A DNA stretch of 63,381 bases, the filler included, from Stramenopiles sp. TOSAG23-2 (taxonomy: Eukaryota): NCBI GenBank assembly GCA_900128395.1. It is 7 parts of 7 records of this genome, joined end to end, with 100 filler letters (N's around TTAATTAATTAA, not from the genome) between each part and the next. Parts side by side here need not be neighbours in the genome. Positions count along the whole stretch, not along the records: positions 1 to 27,469 come from LT649417.1; 6 more parts are not named here. One strand, written 5' to 3'. The position numbers and the translations under genes were made by a program. A model generated the notes under the pieces. That model had not been told where the DNA came from and ran no database searches. It saw only the letters and a list, made by a program, of their open reading frames with translations. Positions 1,657 to 61,807 of this stretch are shown in pieces (positions within the stretch are counted from its first letter, which is position 1; every line of letters starts with the position of its first letter).

Positions 1657-3948
1657 TTAATCTAAACGAATTAACTCAATATCTTTTAACTCATCATCAT
1701 TATTCAACAAATCAGCTATATATTCAGTAAAACGCACAGGTCCGGATAGAATAATACATGCTTTCCCTTTCTTCTTCCCGAGTTCCATATTGTCTTCCTT
1801 TCTACTTAATAAACTATTGAATTTTTCTTTTATAATATTTGTTGTAATTCTTGTACCTTGAATAATTTTGTTTTTATTTGTTAATTTGCGTTTAATTTCG
1901 TGTATCGTGTCATCCTCCATTTCATCCTTATTGCTTTTACTTATAGCATTCTTTCTATCTGCTGCTACAATATATGCATTTGAGATAATATCATTCGATG
2001 CAGTTGTTTGTTTCTTTCTATTTTTCATCTGCGTAGTGCTATTTGTATTTTTATTAGATTGATTCCTACTGCTGAATAATGACGATAACGCTGATGTCGA
2101 ATTCTTATTATCATCATAATCATGTGACAAATGCGTTGGCGGCCGTGGTGTTAAAGTAATAATATAATGCATTTGTAAATACTTTTGACCTTGCGAATTA
2201 CATCTGCCTTCAATTAAATGTTTTTCTAGCAATGGACATTCGAAAATGTCAGTCAACTCTCGTGATTGCCACAGTACATCGGTGTATATATTCGTTTCCA
2301 TCAACATACTTAACATTTGTAAAAATACTACAATGCCAGTACCACCAACTATGTATAAAATGTGATCATTTTCCTCATTTGTTTTTATAATGTTTCGTAA
2401 TTTAGTGGTACCCAAACCTACGTGGGGACCTGATAGACGTAAACGTGATTCACCTATACTTAAGGATGATAAAAATTTAGACATTTCACCATTTGGGTAT
2501 AATCGAATGTAGAATTCAATCAATTTTTTTTTCTCGGCTCCAGAACTACTATTACTTTTACTGTTTCGGCTATTTCGTGATAGCAGCAATTCATTTGCAA
2601 GAGATTCAATCGGTGTATATGGTCTTTCAAATATATCAAACGATTCGCCAGTTGCAAGGAATTTATAATGACATCCTATAAAATCATCAAAATGTCCTAT
2701 ATCTATTTCAAATACAAATTTAACAACAGGTGCTATTGTCAAGTCCATATGTTCCTTATGAACCAATTTTGTAAATGTTATTGTATCCTTTATTTTTTCC
2801 TTTATTGGTACTATACTTTTGTCATTGACATCATTCATGACTATACGACCTCGAACACGCGTTGCCAATAATGTCATTGCAGAGATGGAATGACGATGGG
2901 AAGATTTGATTTTTGATTTACTATTATCATTTTTATTATTATTATTATTATTGTTGTTATTACTGGCGGTGGTAGTGGTGATAGTCATTTCACGATTTGG
3001 TCCTTTATTTTCAATATGATTATTATTTATATCATTTAATGCTTTTATTTCACCACCAATAAATTCTTCTGTTACGTCAAGCCCAATATGAGAACGTAAT
3101 AAATATGCCCCACCAGGATGTACATCAATCCAATCTGAAATATCAATTATAGCATTAGCAACAATAACCCAACGAGATCCGGTAGTAATTTTGCTTCGAA
3201 ATTCATGATGCGAAAACGTTGGTAAATTAAGACGTGTAATTCTATGTTGAAGTTCTTCAAATATATTAATTTTATTTGAAATATTATGAGACAGTTTCCT
3301 CCAACGAAACTCATTATATATAAAAAAAATAATTATAGCCAAAATCCATAAATAGACAACAATTCGCATTCCTATGGTAAACATCATATTTATGCCCATA
3401 ATGCATTGAAATATTCCAAACATTAACAATAAAGGCCCAACAATACGATGACATATTTTCATACGATTGAAGAATATTAATTTTTTCTTTGAATTTTGTG
3501 AATTATGCTGCAAAGCAAAAGCACAAATAAAACCAAGTACAAGTTGAGATCCTGACAATACTAATATTACAATACCTAGAAAGGCATGTGGATTGGACAA
3601 CATTTCAAGAATGCTACGTCGCGATGTTATAAATGTAAACGCTGTGCTAGATACACCAATTACTGTGGATTTTGCTAGTGTTGCATGTAACGTAAGCCAT
3701 CGTGTTTTGTGTCGATAATATTTTACAATGAAAATGGATAATGGTGCAGCAAAAAGCCAAGCATATATCATAATAAAAGAATGTAAATATAATACAAATT
3801 TTCTTGATTCCCAATGTGATTGAATGTCTGTTTTTGTACAATTATTCATTCCCTTTTTTTTTGTGTATATATTTGCTTCTTTCGTTGTTTCGTATGATGA
3901 TGATGGTGGTGATGGTGATGGTGACTTTTGGTTTGATACTTTAGACAA
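1657..3948 (-). CDS. Cytochrome b561 + cytochrome b5 + FAD/NAD(P)H reductase (b5 reductase-like) fusion; start uncertain (first in-frame ATG at 3849)
   Basis: TM region with four His (LHSFIM, WLTLHA, NPHAFLG, CHRIVG). b5 motif DWIDVHPGG...DVTEEF...HS. Reductase motifs RPYTP, GEMSKFL, GGTGI, LSGP. Confidence 0.85.
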   Translation of the reverse strand: MSKVSNQKSPSPSPPSSSYETTKEANIYTKKKGMNNCTKTDIQSHWESRKFVLYLHSFIMIYAWLFAAPLSIFIVKYYRHKTRWLTLHATLAKSTVIGVSSTAFTFITSRRSILEMLSNPHAFLGIVILVLSGSQLVLGFICAFALQHNSQNSKKKLIFFNRMKICHRIVGPLLLMFGIFQCIMGINMMFTIGMRIVVYLWILAIIIFFIYNEFRWRKLSHNISNKINIFEELQHRITRLNLPTFSHHEFRSKITTGSRWVIVANAIIDISDWIDVHPGGAYLLRSHIGLDVTEEFIGGEIKALNDINNNHIENKGPNREMTITTTTASNNNNNNNNNKNDNSKSKIKSSHRHSISAMTLLATRVRGRIVMNDVNDKSIVPIKEKIKDTITFTKLVHKEHMDLTIAPVVKFVFEIDIGHFDDFIGCHYKFLATGESFDIFERPYTPIESLANELLLSRNSRNSKSNSSSGAEKKKLIEFYIRLYPNGEMSKFLSSLSIGESRLRLSGPHVGLGTTKLRNIIKTNEENDHILYIVGGTGIVVFLQMLSMLMETNIYTDVLWQSRELTDIFECPLLEKHLIEGRCNSQGQKYLQMHYIITLTPRPPTHLSHDYDDNKNSTSALSSLFSSRNQSNKNTNSTTQMKNRKKQTTASNDIISNAYIVAADRKNAISKSNKDEMEDDTIHEIKRKLTNKNKIIQGTRITTNIIKEKFNSLLSRKEDNMELGKKKGKACIILSGPVRFTEYIADLLNNDDELKDIELIRLD

Positions 3949-8081: not shown

Positions 8082-10839
8082 TTATTCTTCCTTCGATTTT
8101 TTTTTTTTATACAATAATTGATATAACATAAATACTATCCATCCTCCAAATATAATTAAAGGTATCAACAACAATACATTCTTATATAGTGGTACATTAT
8201 AAGTGCATTGAATATCAAATTCAATATCATCACGTGATGAGGTGGAATATTCATCATATAATTGCACAGCCAAATACCCGGGTGCAACACGTAAAATAGG
8301 TTGAACCTGCTTTTCATTGTTGATGTTACAATTCCAATGTGGATGATAATTAACTTTTAAAACAACAAAAATACCATCATCTTTCATTAATTCTTTTTTT
8401 CCTACTTTAACTTTACAACTATATGTATTTGGACTAATAGTTTCCTGTAAAATCTTGCTCTTTCTTTGTACTATTTTGAAACGACTTATTGGTAATTCAC
8501 TTGGTTTTCTATGATCCATTTGGTATAAAGTCAATGGTGGCTTCTTAAATTTTGGTGGTGCTGACATTGTATATTGCCAATCATCATCAACTTTATCAAC
8601 TGAATCAAATCCCCTTCCATAACCGCGTCCTGGCTTTGCATCATGAAAAAGTGGATGCAAACAATTGTTATATTTCATCGACTTTCCATGAGTATGACAC
8701 CTTGTAGTGACAATAAAATAGTTACTACGTTTAACTTTATAAACTTGAAAATGTCGACGATATTTTTTGTTGTTGTTATTATTATTATTTAAGTCTCCTT
8801 CCTCATAAACTTCTATTAAAAAATGCGGTGGGCGGATTTGTTTCGGTAATATAATATATTGAATATTAAATAAATAATAATGATCAATATTGCCATGATC
8901 AAACCATTCTATCCATGAATCAGCTGGTGCCATTGTATGTAATGTTGGCTTTTTTTTTTGTGTTAGAATATGTGAAAAAAAATTAATATATACATATTTA
9001 GTACATTGATCCAAACAATTATATACTTACACCTATCATTGGCCAATCATCTTCCAGCAATTTGGGAAATAGTGTATAAATTGGCCATTGAGTATATCCC
9101 GGCATGCCAGTAAATATACGACCTTTTAAATAACCATCATTTTTCTCTTTCTCCCGATTCAATATAGTTAAAATGGAATTATATTCTTGTTTTGATAATT
9201 GTTCCCAACGTTTCTTTTGTTTATCCAATGTAGCTATATTAAATGAATGTTGCATTTTATCTCTTTCAAAAAGTGAAGGATAAAGCAATGCAAAAATAAT
9301 TACTAAACACAAAGCAAATGTGATAACTCTTGCACTTTTCCTTCTTGTAATGGGCTCGTCTTCTTCATCAGTTTCCAACATGAATTTTTTCCTGTTCTGG
9401 TAAACCTTTTGTAAAATAAAAATATCATTTAAATACTTTGATGAAAAATGAAATAAAAAATCGAAAACAATGCCACCTGTTGTGTGGGGCGTTGCGTATA
9501 TGAAATGAAAGAGCAATGTGTTAGAGGGAGGTCTTTTATACTATTTGTAGGATTATTACGGAAATAGAATTTACTTACATGTACAAATGGCAAATATTTG
9601 CATTGCAGATATAAAACGATGGAAATGTAACGATGAACTAAATGGCAATAATTTTAATACAATTGGATACTGTGCAAAACATGTTGGCCCAGCAAACATT
9701 ATTCCCCAAAACAAGAATGACACGATAATCCATATATATAAAATAACATTTCTAATATCATACTGATATGATGATAATCTTTGCAGTGATATCACATAAA
9801 TGATTGTTTTATATATTGAAATTATAAATCCTACAAAAGTAGTATTTGTAATGATTTTTGATGTAAATCCAAAATCTAATAGGTCACCATCCATAAATTT
9901 AATATAAAACCAAGTCCAACCGACAGAATCAAATTTCCATTTACGATGTTCAATCTCATTAACGACATATCTATTTTTTAAAAATGGTATGACAAAATAC
10001 GATATCATCGATCCAACTAAAACTAAGATCAATAAAAAGCGAAAAATTGATTTTAAAATATTTGTTTGTTTAAACTGGTAAAATATAAATTGAATGCCGT
10101 CCGTAGTAATTCTTGAGTGTAAATAAATGGTCAATAAAAGTACTTCTAAAATGCATAGACTTCCTAAAACCATGTAACCATAAAAAACATTTGACAATAA
10201 TACGGAAGATATTAACATCGATGCCAATATGATATTCTTCCAAGTTTCATTACGATTTTGATGCAACTTGACCATTGCGTTAAAACTAATACCAAGCGCA
10301 GGAAAAAATAAATAAATTGCCAATAATTGGGAAAATAGACCGTGTCCATTATGAATTTGTGAATTGATTCCAATTCCATAACTATATTGTACTCCTTGTT
10401 GCCTATTTTGTGGTGGTGGGCAATCATTAATAATTGGATACAACATTGTAATAAATACAGCTGCTGCGCTGTTGAAACCTAATTTTTTTGACCCATAAAA
10501 TACCATAATTGGCATTGTAGATAATAAAAACAAGATTGCAGTATCAGCATTAATTTTTTCATAAAAACTGTTGCATATGCCAATTATAACATGTGGTAAA
10601 TGTTGATAATGTGACACTAAGGGAAATCCCGTGTTTAATCCGGGCAAAAAGAAATCATAAGGCGATATACCTTTTAAAACATATTTACCAATATATTTAA
10701 TAACATATCGGTGCAATAATAAATCATTGGTTGAAATATTATTTGTTGATTCAATAAATTGTGTAGATAATATGTAAAATAGCCAAATGACTTCGCACGC
10801 AATTATCGCACTACAGCAGTAGTCAATAATACTCTTCAT
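8082..10839 (-). CDS. Polytopic membrane protein, YfhO-like / GT-C glycosyltransferase-like; 3 exons (10839-9579, 9476-9031, 8948-8082)
   Basis: GFPLVSHYQHLPH loop, many TM helices and a YfhO-type C-terminus (VLKVNYHPHW...RVAPGYLAV). Two GT-AG introns join the three track ORFs in frame. Confidence 0.72.
8949..9030 (-). other. Spliceosomal intron (82 nt, phase 0)
   Basis: GTAAGT donor, CTAAC branch point and AAG acceptor; splicing gives ...MIG|PTLHTM in frame. Confidence 0.75.
9477..9578 (-). mobile_element. Introner-like intron, copy C (102 nt)
   Basis: GTAAGTAAATTCTATT...CCCTCTAACACAT...TTCATATACGC...CAACAG, sharing blocks with the introns at 18583 and 19246. Splicing joins the flanking ORFs in frame (CT-C-GIVF). 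Confidence 0.7.
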
Positions 10840-11226: not shown

Positions 11227-11823
11227 TTAATAATAATATTTTGCCCGGTACATATAAATGTTTAATAACACTTGTACGTGGTTCGTATTTTTTTTACAAT
11301 TGTGGGATGCCGGGCATTGTTCAACGAATGCTAAATTGACATCATTTTTTTCAATTTCTCCAAATGCCACGCCTTTTATTCCATTACTAGTTGTCACTTG
11401 AAAAAGTTGTTGTGCAGTAAGATGATCATAAACTGTTATCGTTTTTCCGCCATCTGATGCCATTGCACACATTTCGTGTTCTACAAATTGTTGAAATGTT
11501 GCAAATGCGACGTATTTAACCGGCTTTGGTGTTTTGATCACTGGTAAATGAACCATTTTTTTCTTGTTAAATACACCTCCTAGCGTCACCACTTTTCGAT
11601 CGGAAACTTGTTTAAAAATTGAATTTGATTGCGTTCGCTTCAATTTTCTTTTTTTCGTACCATCTAAAGCAACCGTTGTTACAATGCTAGGACGTTTCTT
11701 TTCATGATCTAGTGGTGTATGTTCAATACTAATGCTTTTTCTTCTTTTCACATTCATACCCCCCTCCGATGGACTTTTTACTCCACTATCCACGATATAT
11801 TTATTGTCATTTGAGTTGCTCAT
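11227..11823 (-). CDS. Hypothetical protein, possibly a truncated WD40-like protein
   Basis: 198-aa ATG ORF; ASDGGKTITVYD...IKGVAF resembles one propeller blade. Confidence 0.45.
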   Translation of the reverse strand: MSNSNDNKYIVDSGVKSPSEGGMNVKRRKSISIEHTPLDHEKKRPSIVTTVALDGTKKRKLKRTQSNSIFKQVSDRKVVTLGGVFNKKKMVHLPVIKTPKPVKYVAFATFQQFVEHEMCAMASDGGKTITVYDHLTAQQLFQVTTSNGIKGVAFGEIEKNDVNLAFVEQCPASHNCKKNTNHVQVLLNIYMYRAKYYY

Positions 11824-18305: not shown

Positions 18306-20237
18306 ATGTTGGAAACACCAAAGCAAAAGATTAAGATGGAAAATACAAGACGAAAGGAGGTGGAAGATAAAGAAAAAAAGGAGGAAGATGATATTTATAG
18401 AAGTATATCTCCACCAAATACATATGAAAAAATGTTAAAAAAACGTGCGGCAAGAACATCCACTTTTTACTTTTTAGTCATGGCACAAATATTAGTTTAT
18501 GCAGAAGCTGGTGCCGTCCCGGCATTACTACCAAATTTAACGAACTCTTTTAATTTGTCATATTCAATGCAAGGATTTTTAGGTAAGTAAATTCTATTCC
18601 CCTAAACCTGAAAAAAGAGAGACCCTCTAACACATCATCACTAATTCATACGCTTCGCTCCACAGGTGGAATAGTTTATATTGGAATTTCAATTGGTGCG
18701 CCATTGGCTTCTTCATTTTTCCAAACAAATGCAGCAAAAACTGTTTTAATGGCAGCCTTACTTATCAATGGAATCTTTGTATTATTTTTTGCATTACCAC
18801 CTGAAAATTGGAGTTATAGTTTATTAGCATGTCGTTTTATGATGGGAATGTCACAATCCTTTCTTGCAATTTTTACACCGGTATGGGTAGATGTTTTTGC
18901 TACTAGAAGTCAACAAACGCAATGGTTCAGTTGGATTCAGGCATCAACACCAGTTGGTATCATGTTTGGGTATTTATTAGGATTTATAGCAAATGCATTG
19001 AAATCATCGAATGCGAATAATGAAGAATGTTTTGGCGATCGCATTGATTGTTGGAGATTGCCATTTATTGCGCAAGCGATTTTAACAATCCCGTTATGTG
19101 TTCAATTAGCATTCATTTCGAAAAGTAATTTAAATATTAATGGAATACGACGTGCTAATACTCGTGGTCCATCTCTAGGTGACAATGATTTTGCAAAAGC
19201 TATGGATTATAGTGAAGAAGGTATTACAAATGAAGGTTTATCACGGTAAGTAAATTCTATTCCCCCTAAACCTAAAAAAAGAGACACCCTCTAACACATC
19301 ATACTCATTCATATACGCTACACTCAACAGGGTACGTGCTGATTCTTCGTTTTTGTATGGTGCAGCAGCTGCAATGCAACGGACATGGTCACAAACATTT
19401 ACTGCTATCTGTGATATATTATTAACAGGTTCATTTACAATTACGATTCTTGTATTATCTAGTTTATATTTTGTAGTTACATCCGTCCAATTTTGGGCTA
19501 CGGATTATTTAATAAATGGTCCACAGAGATATCCAGTGCATACGGTCATGTTGTGTTTCATTGTAACATCTGCCACTGGGCCAATTTTTGGTGTTCTATT
19601 CGGTGGATGGGCAGTAGATAGAATCGGTGGATATCGTTCATCACCAGAACAAAAATTAAGTAGTGTTAGTTTAGTTACAGGTTTTGCTGTAATATCAAAT
19701 ATATTTGCATTTTCAGCTACGTTTTGGCCAGCTGGAGGTATGTGGTTTGTTATGGGCTGCATTTGGTTTTTATTATTTTTTGGCGGTTCATGTTTACCAG
19801 CTTTAACTGGTATATTCATTGATGCTGTACCTAGGCGCGACAAAGCATTAGGATCATCGATGTCACAAATGGCTTTTAATTTCCTCGGGTATTTCATGTC
19901 TCCAGTATTATCAGGGGAATTGATGGCAACTTTTTCGAAAAGTTTCAAGGAATGTGAAGAATATAAAATCCCAGGTACATGCCCCGAAGCATTGGAATGG
20001 GGATTTCGTGCTAGTTTATTCGGTTCTGCAGTTGCATTGCTTTTTGTCATTTTTTTATGGTGGCATATTTTGTTACAAACAAAATGTTGGAAACATTTTA
20101 AAAGTAGAAATGATAGTGCGACTGAAAATTTGCTAAGTGGAAATACGCCACGTAAAAATAATTATAGCATTTTGGATCGTAGTGTAAATAGTGATGGTGG
20201 TGAGGAAGATGATCATCCTGCTGATGATATCTTTTAG
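18306..20237 (+). CDS. Spinster-like MFS transporter; 3 exons (18306-18582, 18666-19245, 19331-20237)
   Basis: Spliced product reads QGFLGGIVYIG, RFMMG...PVWVD, WRLPF, QFWATDY, TGPIFGVLFGG; about 12 TM helices. Confidence 0.88.
18583..18665 (+). mobile_element. Introner-like intron, copy A (83 nt)
   Basis: GT-AG intron whose removal restores the frame; nearly identical to 19246-19330. Confidence 0.8.
19246..19330 (+). mobile_element. Introner-like intron, copy B (85 nt)
   Basis: GT-AG intron whose removal restores the frame; about 10 differences from copy A by manual alignment. Confidence 0.8.
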
Positions 20238-27469: not shown

Positions 27470-27569
27470 NNNNNNNNNNNNNNNNNNNNNNNNNNNNNNN
27501 NNNNNNNNNNNNNTTAATTAATTAANNNNNNNNNNNNNNNNNNNNNNNNNNNNNNNNNNNNNNNNNNNN
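27470..27569. other. Artificial contig spacer
   Basis: N44-TTAATTAATTAA-N44, with stops in all six frames. Confidence 0.97.
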
Positions 27570-51872: not shown

Positions 51873-53370
51873 ATGAAATTAATCACACTGATTACAATAG
51901 TTCTTGCTACTTCAGCATTAACTGTTGTAGTAGAAGGTAAAAAAACAAAATGGCATCAGTTAAAATCATATAATTTTAAACAATATCAACAAGAATTTAA
52001 TAAAGTATATGAAAGTGAAACAGAAAAAATATTCCGTAAACATATATTCCAACAACGTTTGAAAATTATCATTGCTCATAATGATGATTCATCACAAACA
52101 TACAAACGAGGCGTGAATCATTTTACTGATCATACACCAGAGGAATTAAAACAATCACGTGGTTTGCATAAAGGATTATTATATCAAGGACATCAAGAGA
52201 GAAGGAAATTACAATCCATGAAAGTAATAAATTCTACAAACTCATTGCCAGATTCAGTTGATTGGAGAACTAAAAATGTTCTAACACCAATTAAAAATCA
52301 AGGTGAATGTGGATCGTGCTGGACATTTGCCTCTACTGAAACGTTAGAATCACATACTGCTATCAAAACAGGCATTTTACAAGAGTTAAGTGAACAATTT
52401 ATTTTAGGTAAGTACATTTGTTAAGATATATATATATATCACAGTTTCCTCTGTTTGGATGCTTTTTTCCCCTTCCCTGATACAATTGTTTCCAATGCGC
52501 ATACTATATATATATATCAATAAGGGTTATATTTCCCCATGTAAATATAAGCCAATAATTAATATGCAAGACAAAAGACTCTGATGATCAACACTTTAAA
52601 GGGATACTTAAGATGTGTCAATCATCTTTTTTATTATTGGATAGTGTTGAAACATATATTTTATAAATAAAAAAACTACAACTGATTTAAAAACCGCCTT
52701 ACTATATAAAATAAATGAAGCCGTTTTCTAACAATGTACACATTGTATTTTAGACTGCACACCAAATCCAAAACAATGTGGAGGTACAGGCGGTTGTGCA
52801 GGCGGTACTGCAGAATTAGCATATACACGATTAAAGGAACTTGGTGGTATGCCATCTGAATATACTTATCCATACATTAGTGGGACTGGTAAAGCAGGCA
52901 CATGTCATGGTGTTCCTTTAAAACCAGCAACCCCTCATACTGGAGTACCAATGGCCTCAGCAACATTAAAAGGCCACGTGTCAATTACATCAAACTCATA
53001 TTCTGCTGTTATGGATGGTATTGCAAATATTGGCCCATTAGCTGTATCGGTAGATGCTGGTGCTTGGCACGATTATGAAACTGGAGTATTCTCTGGTGGA
53101 AATCAAACCTCACCAACATTGGATCATCTTGTACAACTTGTTGGGTATGGTACAGATAAAGAATTAGGTGACTACTGGATCATACGAAATAGCTGGACAC
53201 CATTATGGGGAGAGAAAGGCTTTATGCTTTTGAAGCGATTCACTGATGGAGATCATTGTGGAATTGATGTAAATCCACTTGATGGCAATGGATGTAAAGG
53301 CGGCCCACCAACAGTTAAAGTATGTGGTCAAAATGGAGTATTATATGATGCCGTATATCCATTGGTTTAA
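51873..53370 (+). CDS. Papain-family (C1A) cathepsin L-like cysteine protease; exons 51873-52407 and 52754-53370
   Basis: Signal peptide, I29 prodomain (GVNHFTD), QGECGSCW, DH and NSW motifs. GT-AG intron 52408-52753 restores ILDC. Confidence 0.93.
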
Positions 53371-54996: not shown

Positions 54997-55096
54997 NNNN
55001 NNNNNNNNNNNNNNNNNNNNNNNNNNNNNNNNNNNNNNNNTTAATTAATTAANNNNNNNNNNNNNNNNNNNNNNNNNNNNNNNNNNNNNNNNNNNN
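54997..55096. other. Artificial contig spacer
   Basis: N44-TTAATTAATTAA-N44. Confidence 0.97.
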
Positions 55097-55134
55097 GATC
55101 TACACTCTTTCCCGACACGACGCTCTTCCGATCT
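55097..55134 (+). other. Illumina TruSeq adapter contamination
   Basis: GATCTACACTCTTTCCCGACACGACGCTCTTCCGATCT, one mismatch to the universal adapter; translates as [11 protein letters not shown] on the minus strand. Confidence 0.97.
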
Positions 55135-56675
<1,541 letters not shown>

Positions 56676-56775
56676 NNNNNNNNNNNNNNNNNNNNNNNNN
56701 NNNNNNNNNNNNNNNNNNNTTAATTAATTAANNNNNNNNNNNNNNNNNNNNNNNNNNNNNNNNNNNNNNNNNNNN
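56676..56775. other. Artificial contig spacer
   Basis: N44-TTAATTAATTAA-N44. Confidence 0.97.
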
Positions 56776-57095
56776 TGTAAAATATATATATTCTACTAAG
56801 TACAAATATGTCATATACAAGGAATTATATTTAAATTGAATTAAAATGTGCAAATATGCACATATATATATATAGTATAATATTTATAAGTGTTGGTTTT
56901 GGATGATTTTGATATACACGGAAGAACAATAAACAAAAATAAGAAGAATACCATTTTATTTTTGTTGTTGTTGTTGTTTTGCATTGTAATTATATACACA
57001 TTTTGATAATATTGAATAAGAAATATATATATAGAGAGAGAGAGCACGAGGGAGAGAATATACGTGGAAAATAATAATAAATCATAATAATAAAT

Positions 57096-57401
57096 TTTAA
57101 AATGGCTACTTCAATATTAAATGTTAATACAAGAAAAACAGTCGAAGAGTTAGCTATTAAAGCAGTGGAATATGATCGAAATGAAGATTATGATAATGCA
57201 TTGATCTTTTATGACAAAGTTGTAAGCTTGATTTTTGAAACATCAAAATTTAAAATGGCTACTTCAATATTAAATGTTAATACAAGAAAAACAGTCGAAG
57301 AGTTAGCTATTAAAGCAGTGGAATATGATCGAAATGAAGATTATGATAATGCATTGATCTTTTATGACAAAGTTGTAAGCTTGATTTTTGAAACATCAAA
57401 A
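57096..57401. repeat. Exact 153-bp tandem duplication
   Basis: 57096-57248 equals 57249-57401, including 6 nt upstream of the ATG. Confidence 0.92.
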
Positions 57402-58097
57402 ACTTTAAAAAAAAAGGAAAGCAAAAAATTAAGGAAAACGTTACAAATGTATATAGAGCGTATGGAATTAATCAAAGCGTTATTGCCTTCACTTGAAACA
57501 TCGAATAATGTACGTCAATTAGTCTCCCTTGAAAAACAACCTTCCACAGAAAATGTCGAAAAAGAAAAATTAAAACAACTGAAAGAAGATAGTATTAAGT
57601 TAAAAGCGTTAGAAAAGCTTGCTAGAGAAGATTTTCTTTGCCCAATTTCATGTATGTTAACCAAAGAATAACAAAAAACCATTTCCGCAATATATTTCGC
57701 TAACATTTTTATATTTATTATCACCCTCATTCATCATCATACATATAATCTTTATATTTTATTTAAATATTATCATATCAATATGATAATATATTTATTT
57801 AAATATATATATTGACGTATAATATATTTTATATTTAAAAATATAAATAAAATAATAATAGATGATATTATGGTAGATCCTGTTGTTGCAAATGATGGTT
57901 ATACATATGATCGAAAAAATATTGAAGAATGGTGGCAAAAATCAGATTTATCACCAATGACTGGTTTACCAATAGAATCTAAATCATTAATTCCAAATCA
58001 TACTTTAAAAAGTGCAATATCCAGTTGGAATGAGACAATGGGATTTCAAGATAAAGAAGGAGCAGAAGAAGATGAAGAAGAAGATGCATCATCATAG
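57102..58097 (+). CDS. MIT-domain + U-box E3 ubiquitin ligase; exons 57102-57651 and 57862-58097
   Basis: MIT-like KAVEYD...AL.FY...Y.ERME.IK. The spliced U-box reads FLCPISYDIMVDPV...GYTYDR..I..W..SPMT..L.PN. Confidence 0.85.
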
Positions 58098-58353
58098 TCG
58101 CGTGTGTAGTTTGTGTGTGTGTGTGTTGTACTGTAATATATAGTGAAGTAATTTAAAACGTTGTTTTCTTTTTTTACCAAACAGCAGCAGGCGGGGAAGA
58201 CAACACACACTATGCATACACACTATATTTTTTTTACTGGTATATTTATAAATACGACGTGTAATATTTTAATTTTACCCCCTCCCCCTTCCCTAGTATA
58301 TACCACTTTTAAAATCTCTTTTGATTATTTCGTACTTCCCAATCTCTACTAGC

Positions 58354-58453
58354 NNNNNNNNNNNNNNNNNNNNNNNNNNNNNNNNNNNNNNNNNNNNTTA
58401 ATTAATTAANNNNNNNNNNNNNNNNNNNNNNNNNNNNNNNNNNNNNNNNNNNN
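58354..58453. other. Artificial contig spacer
   Basis: N44-TTAATTAATTAA-N44. Confidence 0.97.
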
Positions 58454-58680
58454 AATGTTCTCTTACTCATATATTATATAAATTTCTTTTACTCCCGTTC
58501 ATTAACATCTCAAATCAAAAATGATTTTTAAATACTTATTTATTATACTGGTACGTAGTTAATATATATATATACGTATATATATATAATATATGAAAGA
58601 AGAGTATATAATATACGTTCGTATATATAAATAAAGTAAAAAAAAATAAAATATTTTGTTCTACACAATTTTTTTGTTGT

Positions 58681-59997
58681 TTAGTACCATTGTCCATTTT
58701 CTTGTATTGCTACGACATTTGTTGCTATTGGTACTACTACATCATCATTTTCAACCTGTTCTCTTCTTGTTCTTGATTCATTATTTACATAAATACTTTC
58801 ATAATCAGTAATATTTCTACTATTGTTGATAGGACCAAGATTATCATCGTTGTCCAAAAGTAATTCATATGGAGTCAATCCATTGTTCATGTTGTTGTTG
58901 TTGTTGTTGTTATCATCATCATAATGATCACCATCATTAATTCCAGCATCTTCTAATAAGTTGCTTAATCGTCTTCTTTCGTTTTCGTTTGGTAGATACG
59001 GTATTCTTCTCCAAACAAAAGATGCTGCAATTGTACATAAAAACAACCATGGAAATGTTGAAAACGTTTGAGTGATTGATAATATTGTAAATCCAGAAAT
59101 AGCAGAATCACACAATCCTCCTCTAACAACGTTGTTCCAGATATCATTTATCGCTTTGCATTCAATTAATGTATTCACTTGGTTTAATTGATCAATCGCA
59201 GATTCTAGTTCATTTATTAAATTAGTAACTGCAGGATCTGCCTTGTCCGGATCACAAAATTCCACCCATACATTCAATTTTAATTGAAAACCTAATATTG
59301 TATTATTAGCTTTTATCACTTTATCACGTATTGGATTTGTACCAGTACAGGTCAAATAATATTTAACTTCATCATAAATCAAGCCATGGCTATCATTATC
59401 ACTAATGGTAAAATGTTGTTTTAAATCTTGTGGAGATGAAGCCAAAGTTAAAGCTACTTTTTGTGGATCAATACAAATATCGCTTAACGTTAAACTTGCT
59501 CCAATTTCAAATGATGCAGCAAATAATAAAATTAATATGCATAATGGAGTAAGACAAATAAAAGTAAAACGCAACATGTATTTACTTCGTATACAACTAG
59601 TAGCAATATATGTAATGGCACCAATCACTAAAATGAATGCTAATGGCAAGCCAAAAACAATTCGTCGATCAAGTGCATATTTATTTAAAAAGCTATTTAT
59701 GTCTAAATTCAATATAAACGATATTATATTTTTCGTTGAAATTGCAATATCATCTAATGAATGGCCAAAGTGAGTTGCTTCAATTTTCATTTCACCTAAC
59801 TCTTTATCTGCTTGAGGCCATGGACATGATTTTACATTGTGTAAATTTTTTAGCATTCCATCATCTAATACGCTAGTTTTAATTGCAATATTTTTTGCAG
59901 GTGTTAAAAGGTTTGTAACATTTATTACACCATTTTCGATATCAGCAAAACCTGTATCTACAGCAATGTCTCCTAGAAATGGGCAATATTGTACCAT
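58681..59997 (-). CDS. Tweety-family-like membrane protein (probably 5' partial)
   Basis: SDICIDP, YYLTC.GTNP, C.......GLCD motifs with three TM segments. Confidence 0.65.
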   Translation of the reverse strand: MVQYCPFLGDIAVDTGFADIENGVINVTNLLTPAKNIAIKTSVLDDGMLKNLHNVKSCPWPQADKELGEMKIEATHFGHSLDDIAISTKNIISFILNLDINSFLNKYALDRRIVFGLPLAFILVIGAITYIATSCIRSKYMLRFTFICLTPLCILILLFAASFEIGASLTLSDICIDPQKVALTLASSPQDLKQHFTISDNDSHGLIYDEVKYYLTCTGTNPIRDKVIKANNTILGFQLKLNVWVEFCDPDKADPAVTNLINELESAIDQLNQVNTLIECKAINDIWNNVVRGGLCDSAISGFTILSITQTFSTFPWLFLCTIAASFVWRRIPYLPNENERRRLSNLLEDAGINDGDHYDDDNNNNNNNMNNGLTPYELLLDNDDNLGPINNSRNITDYESIYVNNESRTRREQVENDDVVVPIATNVVAIQENGQWY

Positions 59998-60030
59998 TTA
60001 TTTTGGTTGTTTATTTCTCAAAATTTTTGG

Positions 60031-60130
60031 NNNNNNNNNNNNNNNNNNNNNNNNNNNNNNNNNNNNNNNNNNNNTTAATTAATTAANNNNNNNNNNNNNN
60101 NNNNNNNNNNNNNNNNNNNNNNNNNNNNNN
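60031..60130. other. Artificial contig spacer
   Basis: N44-TTAATTAATTAA-N44. Confidence 0.97.
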
Positions 60131-60772
60131 GAACGTACGCCATTGCATTTATTGCTTTCAATGCCTCCACCAGCATTAAGTTTGACAAAGGAACATGTGT
60201 CTATCGTGAAACACTGCATATCAAGTGTCAATGTAAATGGTTTAATAGATATTAATGCAACTGATCGTTATGGCAATACGGCATTATTGGCATTTTGCAA
60301 AGTTACTGCTGGCATACCTCAAAAAGGTGAAGGTCGTGCATTTTATAAATGGGCTACCAATATTATTGATGCGTTATTGATGCAAGGTGCAGATGCAAAA
60401 ATTGTTAGTCGACATGGTTTAAGTCCATTAGACATGGCAGGATTTTGGGATCTTGCACCAGCTGCTAAAAAAGTCAGGGCACATGGTGGAACATTATATG
60501 ATTTAATATGGTCTCAATTGGCTTTAGATAATCGAAGGAAAGAGAAACAGAAAAAGCTAAATGTGCATCATTATGATAAGAGAGGATCAGAAAATTACAG
60601 CCGTCATGGTAATAATTTCAGTAACGATCGTCAACGCCATTATTCTGCAAATACGCCATTGTCTTCTGCAAATAATATTAATGCAACTACGCCAATGCAT
60701 GTGGAAAAAATAAATGGATTGTTAGATAAAGCATCGTCGATAAGTGAATTAACAAATAGGCATTTGAATTAA
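60131..60772 (+). CDS. Ankyrin-repeat protein (5' partial)
   Basis: RTPLHL, INATDRYGNTAL, GAD...HGLSPLDMA; the frame is open from the contig edge. Confidence 0.8.
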   Translation, partial: ERTPLHLLLSMPPPALSLTKEHVSIVKHCISSVNVNGLIDINATDRYGNTALLAFCKVTAGIPQKGEGRAFYKWATNIIDALLMQGADAKIVSRHGLSPLDMAGFWDLAPAAKKVRAHGGTLYDLIWSQLALDNRRKEKQKKLNVHHYDKRGSENYSRHGNNFSNDRQRHYSANTPLSSANNINATTPMHVEKINGLLDKASSISELTNRHLN

Positions 60773-61030
60773 AGAACAGTTTTGATTAATTTTTAATTGT
60801 AATATAGAAAATATGAGACATGATATTGATAAAATGATTGATTTTTATTTGTAATATATCATATACAGCTTTTCCGTATATTATATGTTTTGAGATTTTA
60901 TACGTATTTTACGCGCTTTTTTTGACAAATGCTGCATAGACTTGTGGCATTAATGGTTTATGTCGAACAACTGTTTCGCTGTTGCATCAGAGTAACGCGA
61001 TTATTTTGTACAAACATTTGTATTAAATGT

Positions 61031-61375
61031 TTAGCGGAAGAACCTTTTGCCTTGTTGAACAACTTTTTTACTTTTTTTGCCTTGTTGAACAACTTTTTTA
61101 CTTTTTTTGCCATTAGCAGGTTTACCTTTTCCAGGGATGATTCTGCGCAAAAGTTTGCCAGCATCTTCTTGCAATTGCAAGATCTTGCTAGAAATTTCGC
61201 GGTTTTCCTTTTCTCTGCTCCTCTGGTCACTTTTCCCAGCTTCCTTGCCTTCTTTAATAGCACTTACAAGTGTCATTAAAGCACCTTTCAAAGTTACAAC
61301 ATCTGATTTTACACTTGCTAATTCTTCATTCATTTGTTGCAACTTGATACCTTTGTCATAGTTGCAAATTTTCAA
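61031..61375 (-). CDS. Short coiled-coil/basic ORF containing a 30-bp tandem repeat
   Basis: GKKSKKVVQQ twice; no clear ATG; the frame runs into the upstream repeat cluster. Confidence 0.3.
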   Translation of the reverse strand: MKICNYDKGIKLQQMNEELASVKSDVVTLKGALMTLVSAIKEGKEAGKSDQRSREKENREISSKILQLQEDAGKLLRRIIPGKGKPANGKKSKKVVQQGKKSKKVVQQGKRFFR

Positions 61376-61395
61376 TGTCTTAATTTCGTCGCCAT

Positions 61396-61580
61396 TTTCT
61401 TGTCCTCCTGAGCGTCGTGTGTTCTGACTAAGCTCTATTCTTGTCCTAGCTCTCCTGAGCGTCGTGTGTTTCGACTATTCTTTTGTCCTAGTCTTGTCCT
61501 AGTCGGAACACACGACGCTCAGTCTCAGGAGAGCGTTTTCTTGTCCTAGTCGGAACACACGACACACGACGCGCAGGAAC
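61396..61580. repeat. Cluster of direct and inverted GC-rich repeats
   Basis: CTGAGCGTCGTGTGTT..GACTA twice forward and twice reverse (last copy partial), interleaved with TCTTGTCCTAG-type copies. Confidence 0.85.
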
Positions 61581-61707
61581 TCCCCTCGAACCCTACTTTA
61601 AACACTATCATGAAAATTGGGGTGGGAACGGCCCCTTTTCGCAGCTCTGCAAGTTTTGGACACCTTTCAGCAGCTGCAATATTTATTCTTTATGCATTTC
61701 TTGCATC

Positions 61708-61807
61708 NNNNNNNNNNNNNNNNNNNNNNNNNNNNNNNNNNNNNNNNNNNNTTAATTAATTAANNNNNNNNNNNNNNNNNNNNNNNNNNNNNNNNNNNNN
61801 NNNNNNN
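61708..61807. other. Artificial contig spacer
   Basis: N44-TTAATTAATTAA-N44. Confidence 0.97.

Follow-up and report, generated by a model that had tools for sequence, protein, structure and literature searches.

The origin of new spliceosomal introns is a long-standing question, and it is raised in compact form by a single gene of Stramenopiles sp. TOSAG23-2, which encodes a transporter of the MFS type and is interrupted by two almost identical introns. The gene is located in a stretch of 63,381 nucleotides (nt) from the assembly GCA_900128395.1, in the following termed the window, which consists of seven parts of seven records joined end to end by spacers. A first-pass annotation, made from the sequence of the window alone, had proposed that both introns, here named A and B, are copies of an introner, i.e. 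an element which spreads as a ready-made intron, that this introner is devoid of terminal inverted repeats (TIRs), and that it was gained in an intron-poor protist.

In this study, the window and public marine contigs were searched for further copies, and introns A and B were compared with RNA contigs, DNA contigs and homologous proteins. According to the results, A and B very probably belong to one short, multi-copy introner family, in which the element is a complete intron and which was recently gained. The core of the proposal holds: 43 distinct sites were found, 41 of them being sense introns, intron B is spliced, and homologues of the gene are uninterrupted. The family is a clean and small case of an unclassified introner, consisting of a whole intron without inverted ends and without duplication, on the sense strand of genes. 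The host, an abundant organism of the ocean with few introns and a dense gene content, is already represented in many public metagenomes and polyA metatranscriptomes.

Two near-identical introns in the MFS gene

The gene is located on the plus strand and is composed of the following parts:

18306-18582, plus strand: exon 1, beginning with the ATG at 18306 and ending with the first base of a codon that the intron splits; through ...MQGFL, it corresponds to the N-terminal part of homologues P0122-P0130 in the alignment
18583-18665, plus strand: intron A, 83 nt, phase 1; family member differing from the consensus in 8 of 81 columns
18666-19245, plus strand: exon 2, matching Pfam MFS_1 (E 2e-13) and Sugar_tr (E 2e-10) and aligned to the homologues
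19246-19330, plus strand: intron B, 85 nt, phase 2; family member differing from the consensus in 6 of 81 columns, with a joint seen in RNA
19331-20237, plus strand: exon 3 including the stop codon, an open reading frame (ORF) aligning to the C-terminal half of the homologues

Both introns start with GTAAGT and end with CAG, thereby having GT..AG ends. Intron A splits a codon after its first base and intron B after its second, and the reading frame is restored when both are cut out. Exons 1 and 3 gave no usable Pfam match, and colinearity across intron A was taken from the alignment of homologues instead. The three exon translations tile nine homologues (P0122-P0130, found with exon 2) with 0 gaps and 0 overlap; the split codons yield the G of ...MQGFL-G-GIVYIG... 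at intron A and the R of ...EGLS-R-VRADS... at intron B, both of which are conserved in the homologues. Coordinates, lengths, ends, phases and frame restoration of both introns, as given in the first-pass annotation, are correct. The nearest named relative of the protein is from a diatom, with 33% identity.

The global identity between A and B is 0.884, which agrees with the about 10 differences over 86 positions described before, and the likeness ends exactly at the GT and the AG. Between the exon sequences flanking A and those flanking B, no similarity was found; the two introns are at unrelated coding sites, as had been claimed, and a duplication of exons was not detected by way of their flanks.

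RNA and DNA contigs covering the gene

Contigs of two DNA runs (X1 and X3), of a polyA metatranscriptome (X15) and of a second RNA run (X16) were aligned to the MFS gene, the DNA contigs at 80% likeness. Splicing of intron B was found in a 151-nt contig of X15 (record 12), which covers 19148-19244 and continues with 19330-19383, omitting 85 nt with GT..AG ends. In X15 and X16, the depth was zero in both intron bins, and the exons were covered. The match of one X16 contig (record 17) ends at 18664 with 7 letters to spare, which is compatible with a spliced junction and is by itself no evidence; the single line of evidence for A being an intron is the colinearity of the protein.

In the DNA runs, 15 of the 16 X1 contigs fit the gene in part only, with a depth confined to six bins at or beside the two introns, and the same partial fit was obtained for 26 of 35 X3 contigs. 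The non-fitting parts begin at 18582/18583, 18665 and 19330/19331 and disagree among themselves. Contigs from other loci match 18582-18665 only and then diverge. Since the loose ends of unrelated contigs start at the intron borders, the repeat unit ends exactly where the intron ends.

Contigs of X16 also match the MFS gene at 18852-18946 (13 of 95 letters differing) and at 19461-19630 (30 of 170 differing). According to these diverged matches, a related species expresses an orthologue in the same water.

Size of the intron family

By short-word BLAST, a third copy was found within the window:

9477-9578, minus strand: intron C, 102 nt, phase 1; a diverged member with 18 of 81 consensus columns differing and 21 inserted nt, located in an unrelated gene (ORFs 9571-10839 and 9019-9540, minus strand)

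For the search of public metagenome contigs, a pattern was composed of the first 12 bases and an 11-base branch-point block common to A, B and C. This pattern matched 36 marine metagenome contigs; a scan of viral contigs with it gave 0 matches. Comparison of the upstream flanks assigns the 39 pattern matches (the three copies in the window and 36 loci) to 32 distinct sites. A hidden Markov model built from these 32 unique seeds then yielded 52 matches in the 306,984 nt of the window and the 36 contigs, corresponding to the 43 distinct sites. With these and with the copies having unlike flanks in X1 and X3, the expected further copies of the element do exist.

An automatic frame test was applied, in which a GT..AG cut at the ends of a match must give an open frame of at least 99 codons over 150 nt on each side. 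Of the 52 matches, 46 restored an open frame when cut in this way. The six failures were inspected again, both manually and with a script. In one of them, the intron follows a start codon at a distance of 37 nt; at another site, represented by two matches, a GTGAGT located 16 nt upstream replaces the copy's own, lost GT; one copy sits in a convergent gene and has the sense orientation of that gene; one match sits at a contig end; and one, which is in sense orientation shortly before an ORF and has lost its GT, is ambiguous. In total, 41 of the 43 distinct sites are sense-strand GT..AG introns and 0 are antisense. After merging of sites seen in two contigs, the 46 matches with a restored frame gave 38 distinct introns of 64-109 nt for alignment. 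As found, 14 of them are in phase 0, 8 in phase 1 and 16 in phase 2, the copy in contig L028 really being in phase 2. Their pairwise identity is 0.756 on average and 0.95 at most, and the sequence in common extends over the whole intron. At most one of about 40 copies is located outside ORF-supported DNA, although such DNA makes up 18% of the sample (binomial 0.003).

Clusters of copies occur as well. In contig L007 (350-2335, plus strand), four copies starting at 350, 622, 1161 and 2257 are present within about 2 kb of one gene, and a fifth, diverged copy is located on the opposite strand in a convergent WD40-like gene.

Structure of the element

The consensus derived from the 38 aligned copies has 81 columns, i.e. 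the element comprises about 81 nt and is identical with the whole intron. It begins with the 5' splice-site block GTAAGTAAATTC, contains the branch region CTCTAACACAT about 30 nt before its end, and continues with a C/T-rich tail and the 3' CACAG. Conservation of 70-90% was also found in columns which are free of the search pattern, namely in TATTCCCCTAAACCT following the 5' block and in the tail of about 30 nt ending with CTCCACAG; the A-rich middle is the only freely varying part. Individual copies diverge from the consensus in 5-30% of the columns (mean 14%). The element is poor in G (6 G in 80 nt).

TIRs are absent, with 5 of 20 terminal positions being complementary, which confirms what had been noted by eye. 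RNAalifold predicted 0 pairs for the 38 copies, and single copies had minimum free energies of -1.7 to -4.5 kcal/mol, no better than shuffled sequences (z -0.79 to +0.59). A search of 18400-19500 against Rfam gave no match at E<=1.

Three copies have been enlarged by internal events (L024:528-619, L025:3476-3572 and L030:2313-2417). In these copies, the 5' GTAAATTCTAT is repeated in tandem, the middle contains a (TA)n stretch, or the 3' splice site is preceded by a (CA)n stretch.

Insertion junctions

Short duplications at the junctions had been reported for both introns. At intron A, AGGT is indeed present on both sides (18581-18584 and 18664-18667). As a target-site duplication (TSD) or as a feature of the family, this observation could not be upheld. 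The two GGTA copies at intron B (19245 and 19331) are 86 nt apart, the intron itself having 85 nt; since this spacing exceeds the intron length by 1, they are out of register for a TSD which splicing removes precisely. Furthermore, AG precedes the intron in 1 of 38 unique copies. No flank duplication of fixed length was found among the 38 copies, the identity between upstream suffixes and downstream prefixes being equal to that of a shuffled-pair control.

Microhomology at the junctions has a mean length of 0.97 nt, compared with 0.53 nt at control positions shifted by 3-39 nt. Among the 38 copies, position -1 is occupied by G, T, A and C in 13, 12, 11 and 2 cases and position +1 in 16, 13, 5 and 4 cases, respectively. 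G is thereby enriched at both positions over its background of 20%. These junction features resemble the exon context commonly found at splice sites, or a mild insertion preference, and not a TSD.

Gain and age of introns A and B

Four homologous MFS proteins are uninterrupted at both intron sites, namely P0123 (83% identity over exon 2), P0124 (75%), P0126 (68%) and P0128 (64%); the presence/absence comparison with orthologues suggested in the first-pass annotation thereby came out in favour of gain. P0126 is encoded on a contig of 29 kb and P0128 on one of 21.6 kb. The most plausible reading is that A and B were gained in the lineage of the window. Two contigs which are 96-97% identical to the window, L016 and L009, between them carry A, B and C, with C being present in L009 (97%). 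We infer that the insertions are younger than the split from the relatives whose MFS proteins have 64-83% identity, and older than the separation of the populations with 96-97% identity. With respect to activity, two copies reach at most 95% identity to each other, and the copy nearest to the consensus deviates from it in 4 of 81 columns.

Apparent introns are present at other places of the MFS gene in relatives: the sequence of P0123 reads into one at a third place, and those of P0125 and P0127 at a fourth. These places, after ...SLVT and after ...D[KT]IG, are both uninterrupted in the window. Introns at other places in the relatives indicate that intron positions turn over fast in this clade.

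Contig L009 also differs from the window by about 4.5 kb of extra sequence (L009:7441-11919, at 11311/11312 of the window), which reflects a structural variant or a gap in the assembly. That this segment is a mobile element was ruled out, as it contains ordinary genes (WD40 repeat, ion channel).

Alternative explanations

A and B are only 580 nt apart in one gene and 88% identical, and nine loci have a second copy or more close by. Both observations would suit a local event in the MFS gene, in which either a segment was duplicated together with its intron or two older introns underwent gene conversion. This is extremely improbable in our view: the flanking exons are dissimilar, no segment of the protein is duplicated in the homologues, and a copy on another contig (L023_5403) has an identity of 0.928 with A and of 0.907 with B, in each case above the value for A and B themselves. 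Pairs on the same contig are no more alike (mean identity 0.753, n=12) than other pairs (0.756; permutation p 0.56), and the copies are arranged star-like around one consensus. As A and B are each nearer to a copy in another gene, a common source sequence is indicated, and the two appear to have been inserted independently.

For comparison with ordinary introns, strict criteria were used (GTAAGT, CTAAC, frame restored and read-through blocked), as a permissive scan of the window was too noisy for counting weak introns. Five strict introns were obtained in the window, three of them being the family members A, B and C. The other two are:

8949-9030, minus strand: non-family intron, 82 nt, in the same gene as intron C; has in common with the family only GTAAGTA and TTCTAACACA; no profile match
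52408-52753, plus strand: non-family intron, 346 nt, splitting a papain-type protease gene (Pfam Peptidase_C1 profile positions 1-55 before and 55-215 after the intron); no profile match

A further candidate at 22294-21908 failed the frame test and was dropped.

These two introns bear on convergence, in which a demanding spliceosome in an intron-poor host would drive all introns to one sequence without any copying. They also have GTAAGTA and TCTAACA(C)A, and the splice signals are among the most conserved columns of the family. However, GTAAGTA and TCTAACA are all that both have in common with it, so that strict introns of the same window exist without family sequence; the distance from branch point to 3' end is about 30 nt in the family versus 12 nt in the intron at 8949-9030, and the 70-90% conservation extends to columns between and after the signals, outside the search pattern. 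Convergence is therefore hardly credible. A very small probability is also assigned to A and B being old introns which were lost in the relatives and whose likeness is kept by selection for an embedded functional RNA or regulatory site. The fairly high divergence of the copies from the consensus (mean 14%, minimum 5%) and the fixation of all three window copies in the sampled populations would agree with old age. On the other hand, neither the Rfam search nor the folding gave any sign of a functional RNA, and the absence of both introns from four relatives, some of them with introns elsewhere in the gene, is better explained by gain than by four parallel double losses.

Mechanism of spread

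The preferred reading, one family of complete-intron introners, leaves the question of how the copies are made. The element carries both splice sites as well as the branch point and would thereby be spliced cleanly from any transcribed gene and in any codon phase; copies are indeed inserted in all three phases with little site preference. Excised intron RNA could be reverse-spliced by the spliceosome into a transcript or into the DNA of an R-loop, and the reverse-spliced intron could then be copied into DNA. Such a route would leave no duplication and no inverted ends, and sense copies only inside transcription units. Insertion of the exact intron, sense orientation only, location inside transcribed regions and nothing being duplicated were all four observed. 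The chances that the family spreads via excised intron RNA and reverse splicing are about even.

Alternatively, the element could be a non-autonomous DNA transposon, i.e. an introner similar to a miniature inverted-repeat transposable element (MITE), a Helitron or a Crypton, with the enzyme encoded elsewhere and with selection leaving the sense intronic copies in a gene-dense genome. This alternative concerns the mechanism only and not the status as an introner family. About 82% of the classifiable introner families are stated to be TIR DNA transposons (PMC12130899), antisense insertions into exons would be lethal and hence unseen, the junction microhomology is mildly raised, and the sampling favours intact intronic copies. 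Nevertheless, the ends match at 5 of 20 positions and form no TIR, no flank duplication of fixed length exceeds that of shuffles, and the flanking bases are unlike the A before and T after, or the TT before and TC after, which are expected for Helitrons. At most one of about 40 copies is outside ORF-supported DNA compared with about 7 expected, and no longer relative of the element was seen in the 307 kb. On balance, a DNA transposon appears unlikely, while being a candidate to be taken seriously.

Several points weigh against the reading of a recently gained introner family spread by reverse splicing. The check by RNA junctions was positive for intron B, and for intron A no contig joining its two sides is among the listed RNA contigs of X15 and X16. 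The DNA contigs are 16 (X1) and 35 (X3) in number, not hundreds, with an uncertain sensitivity for 80-nt matches. All counts, also those of intergenic and antisense copies, refer to the window and to the 36 contigs picked by the pattern. Of the 38 aligned copies, 32 were chosen by a pattern requiring intact splice motifs, which favours functional intronic copies, and the conservation of the 23 columns of GTAAGTAAATTC and CTCTAACACAT, fixed by the pattern in the 32 seed sites, is partly imposed. The picture expected for reverse splicing could equally come from selection combined with this sampling, and microhomology of at least 2 nt, present in 11 of 38 copies versus 4.5 expected, could also be produced by a mechanism at the level of DNA. 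The homologues were read as proteins, and the genomic nature of P0126 and P0128 is deduced from their contig sizes. As to age, the gain had been called recent or ongoing. It is recent on the scale of species; ongoing gain found no support, since A, B and C are common to populations 96-97% identical, and no intron-less form was seen in the DNA contigs of X1 or X3, which is no proof of fixation as contigs drop rare variants. No sign of present activity was found.

Comparison with known introners

Transposon-type introners with TIRs and TSDs were reportedly described by Huff et al. in 2016, and fungal introner-like elements are said to go back to van der Burgt et al. in 2012.

A survey lists 1,093 introner families from 201 species, most of the hosts being aquatic, unicellular or fungal, and leaves about 72% of the families unclassified; in a species of Parmales, one family of unknown mechanism accounts for more than 91% of the recognisable gains (Gozashti et al. 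2025, PMC12130899). Families without both TSDs and TIRs are reported by Gozashti et al. 2022, whose survey took in 520 eukaryotic genomes of Tara Oceans (PMC9860276), and the family described here may already be present in published introner catalogues as a result of that screen. In the full-text literature, no paper joining 'introner' with 'MAST-4' was found.

The introner elements of Micromonas (Worden et al. 2009, as presented in Simmons et al. 2015, PMC4540971) are repeated introns of high similarity in sense orientation within transcription units, which are removed by the spliceosome, encode no protein and were recognised as gains by their presence or absence. Their strict location on the coding strand led to reverse-splicing models including insertion into the DNA of R-loops (PMC4540971). 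By description, not by sequence, the present family resembles them in being repeated sense introns within transcription units, non-coding and gained. In contrast to the GC-rich green alga Micromonas, the host here is an uncultured, AT-rich marine protist (32% guanine plus cytosine, GC), and the predicted stem-loop invoked for the Micromonas elements (PMC4540971) has no predicted counterpart here. Like the fungal introner-like elements, as characterised by Collemare et al. 2013 (PMC3609843), the family consists of a complete multi-copy spliceosomal intron that degenerates towards ordinary introns. According to that description, the fungal elements exceed regular introns in length and are predicted to form stable structures, whereas the family here is unstructured and does not surpass the regular introns nearby (82 and 346 nt) in length.

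With transposon-type introners (PMC9860276, PMC12130899), the family has in common that many new introns were created in aquatic unicellular eukaryotes. Unlike MITE-type introners, as outlined in these two papers, it has no TIR and no TSD; both splice sites are borne by the element, and both ends are constant instead of depending on the site. Having sequence shared over the whole length, splicing and gain, the family falls under the definition of an introner as used by Worden et al. 2009 and Gozashti et al. 2022, and it is neither of the MITE type nor structured like the fungal elements.

A family copy in a virus-like contig

One of the 36 metagenome contigs, L028, differs from the other 35 loci in its GC content (57% versus 30-36%). 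It contains one family copy at 2937-3011 inside a gene for a P-loop primase/helicase-like protein (L028:1897-3360). Five homologues of this helicase, which are 43-50% identical and located on contigs of up to 34 kb, are uninterrupted at the intron site, and the two exon translations align to them without gaps. In variants of the helicase that are 99% and 85% identical, the sequence breaks off at this site. Adjacent ORFs match DUF5754 (PF19058, E 7e-7) and, weakly, the packaging-type ATPase AAA_10 (E 0.008, below the Pfam cut-off). L028 has the appearance of a small DNA virus or of a polinton-like element. When relatives of the L028 helicase were sought in viral contigs, 42 pattern matches were obtained, of which 0 were confirmed.

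Introners inside integrated viral genes are on record (PMC12130899), and the copy in L028 is a parallel to these; it is relevant to the published proposal of an introner transfer between hosts by viruses. As a tentative and rather doubtful extension, the family may be a spliceosome-dependent mobile intron, the unstructured, G-poor RNA of 81 nt of which reverse-splices, hits some genes repeatedly, with up to four copies in 2 kb in L007, and travels between genomes in small DNA viruses; the copy in L028 would be one such case, being retained in the helicase variant of 85% identity.

Host and further observations on the window

The window has a GC content of 32%, and 74% of its first 55 kb are in ORFs of at least 100 codons. 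Its sequence is present in many marine metagenomes and polyA metatranscriptomes. For a CDPK encoded in the window, no named relative above 43% identity was found. Diatom and ciliate clusters are listed in the atlas. Published figures for MAST-4A are 33.9% GC and 0.56 introns per gene (PMC5269757); the GC content, gene density and few introns of the window resemble these figures (PMC5269757), which provides a lead only and not an identification.

The spacers between the pieces of the window consist of 44 N, 12 nt and again 44 N. The MFS gene is located in the first piece, which ends before the spacer at 27470-27569, and the pieces from 54997 to 61807 have about 1.58 kb each. In one of these small pieces, at 55045-56169 on the minus strand, the first approximately 300 residues of the plastid protein CP43 (psbC) are encoded, with the best matches being from plants and green algae (E 1e-179); this sequence may be DNA of prey or a contaminant rather than the host's own.

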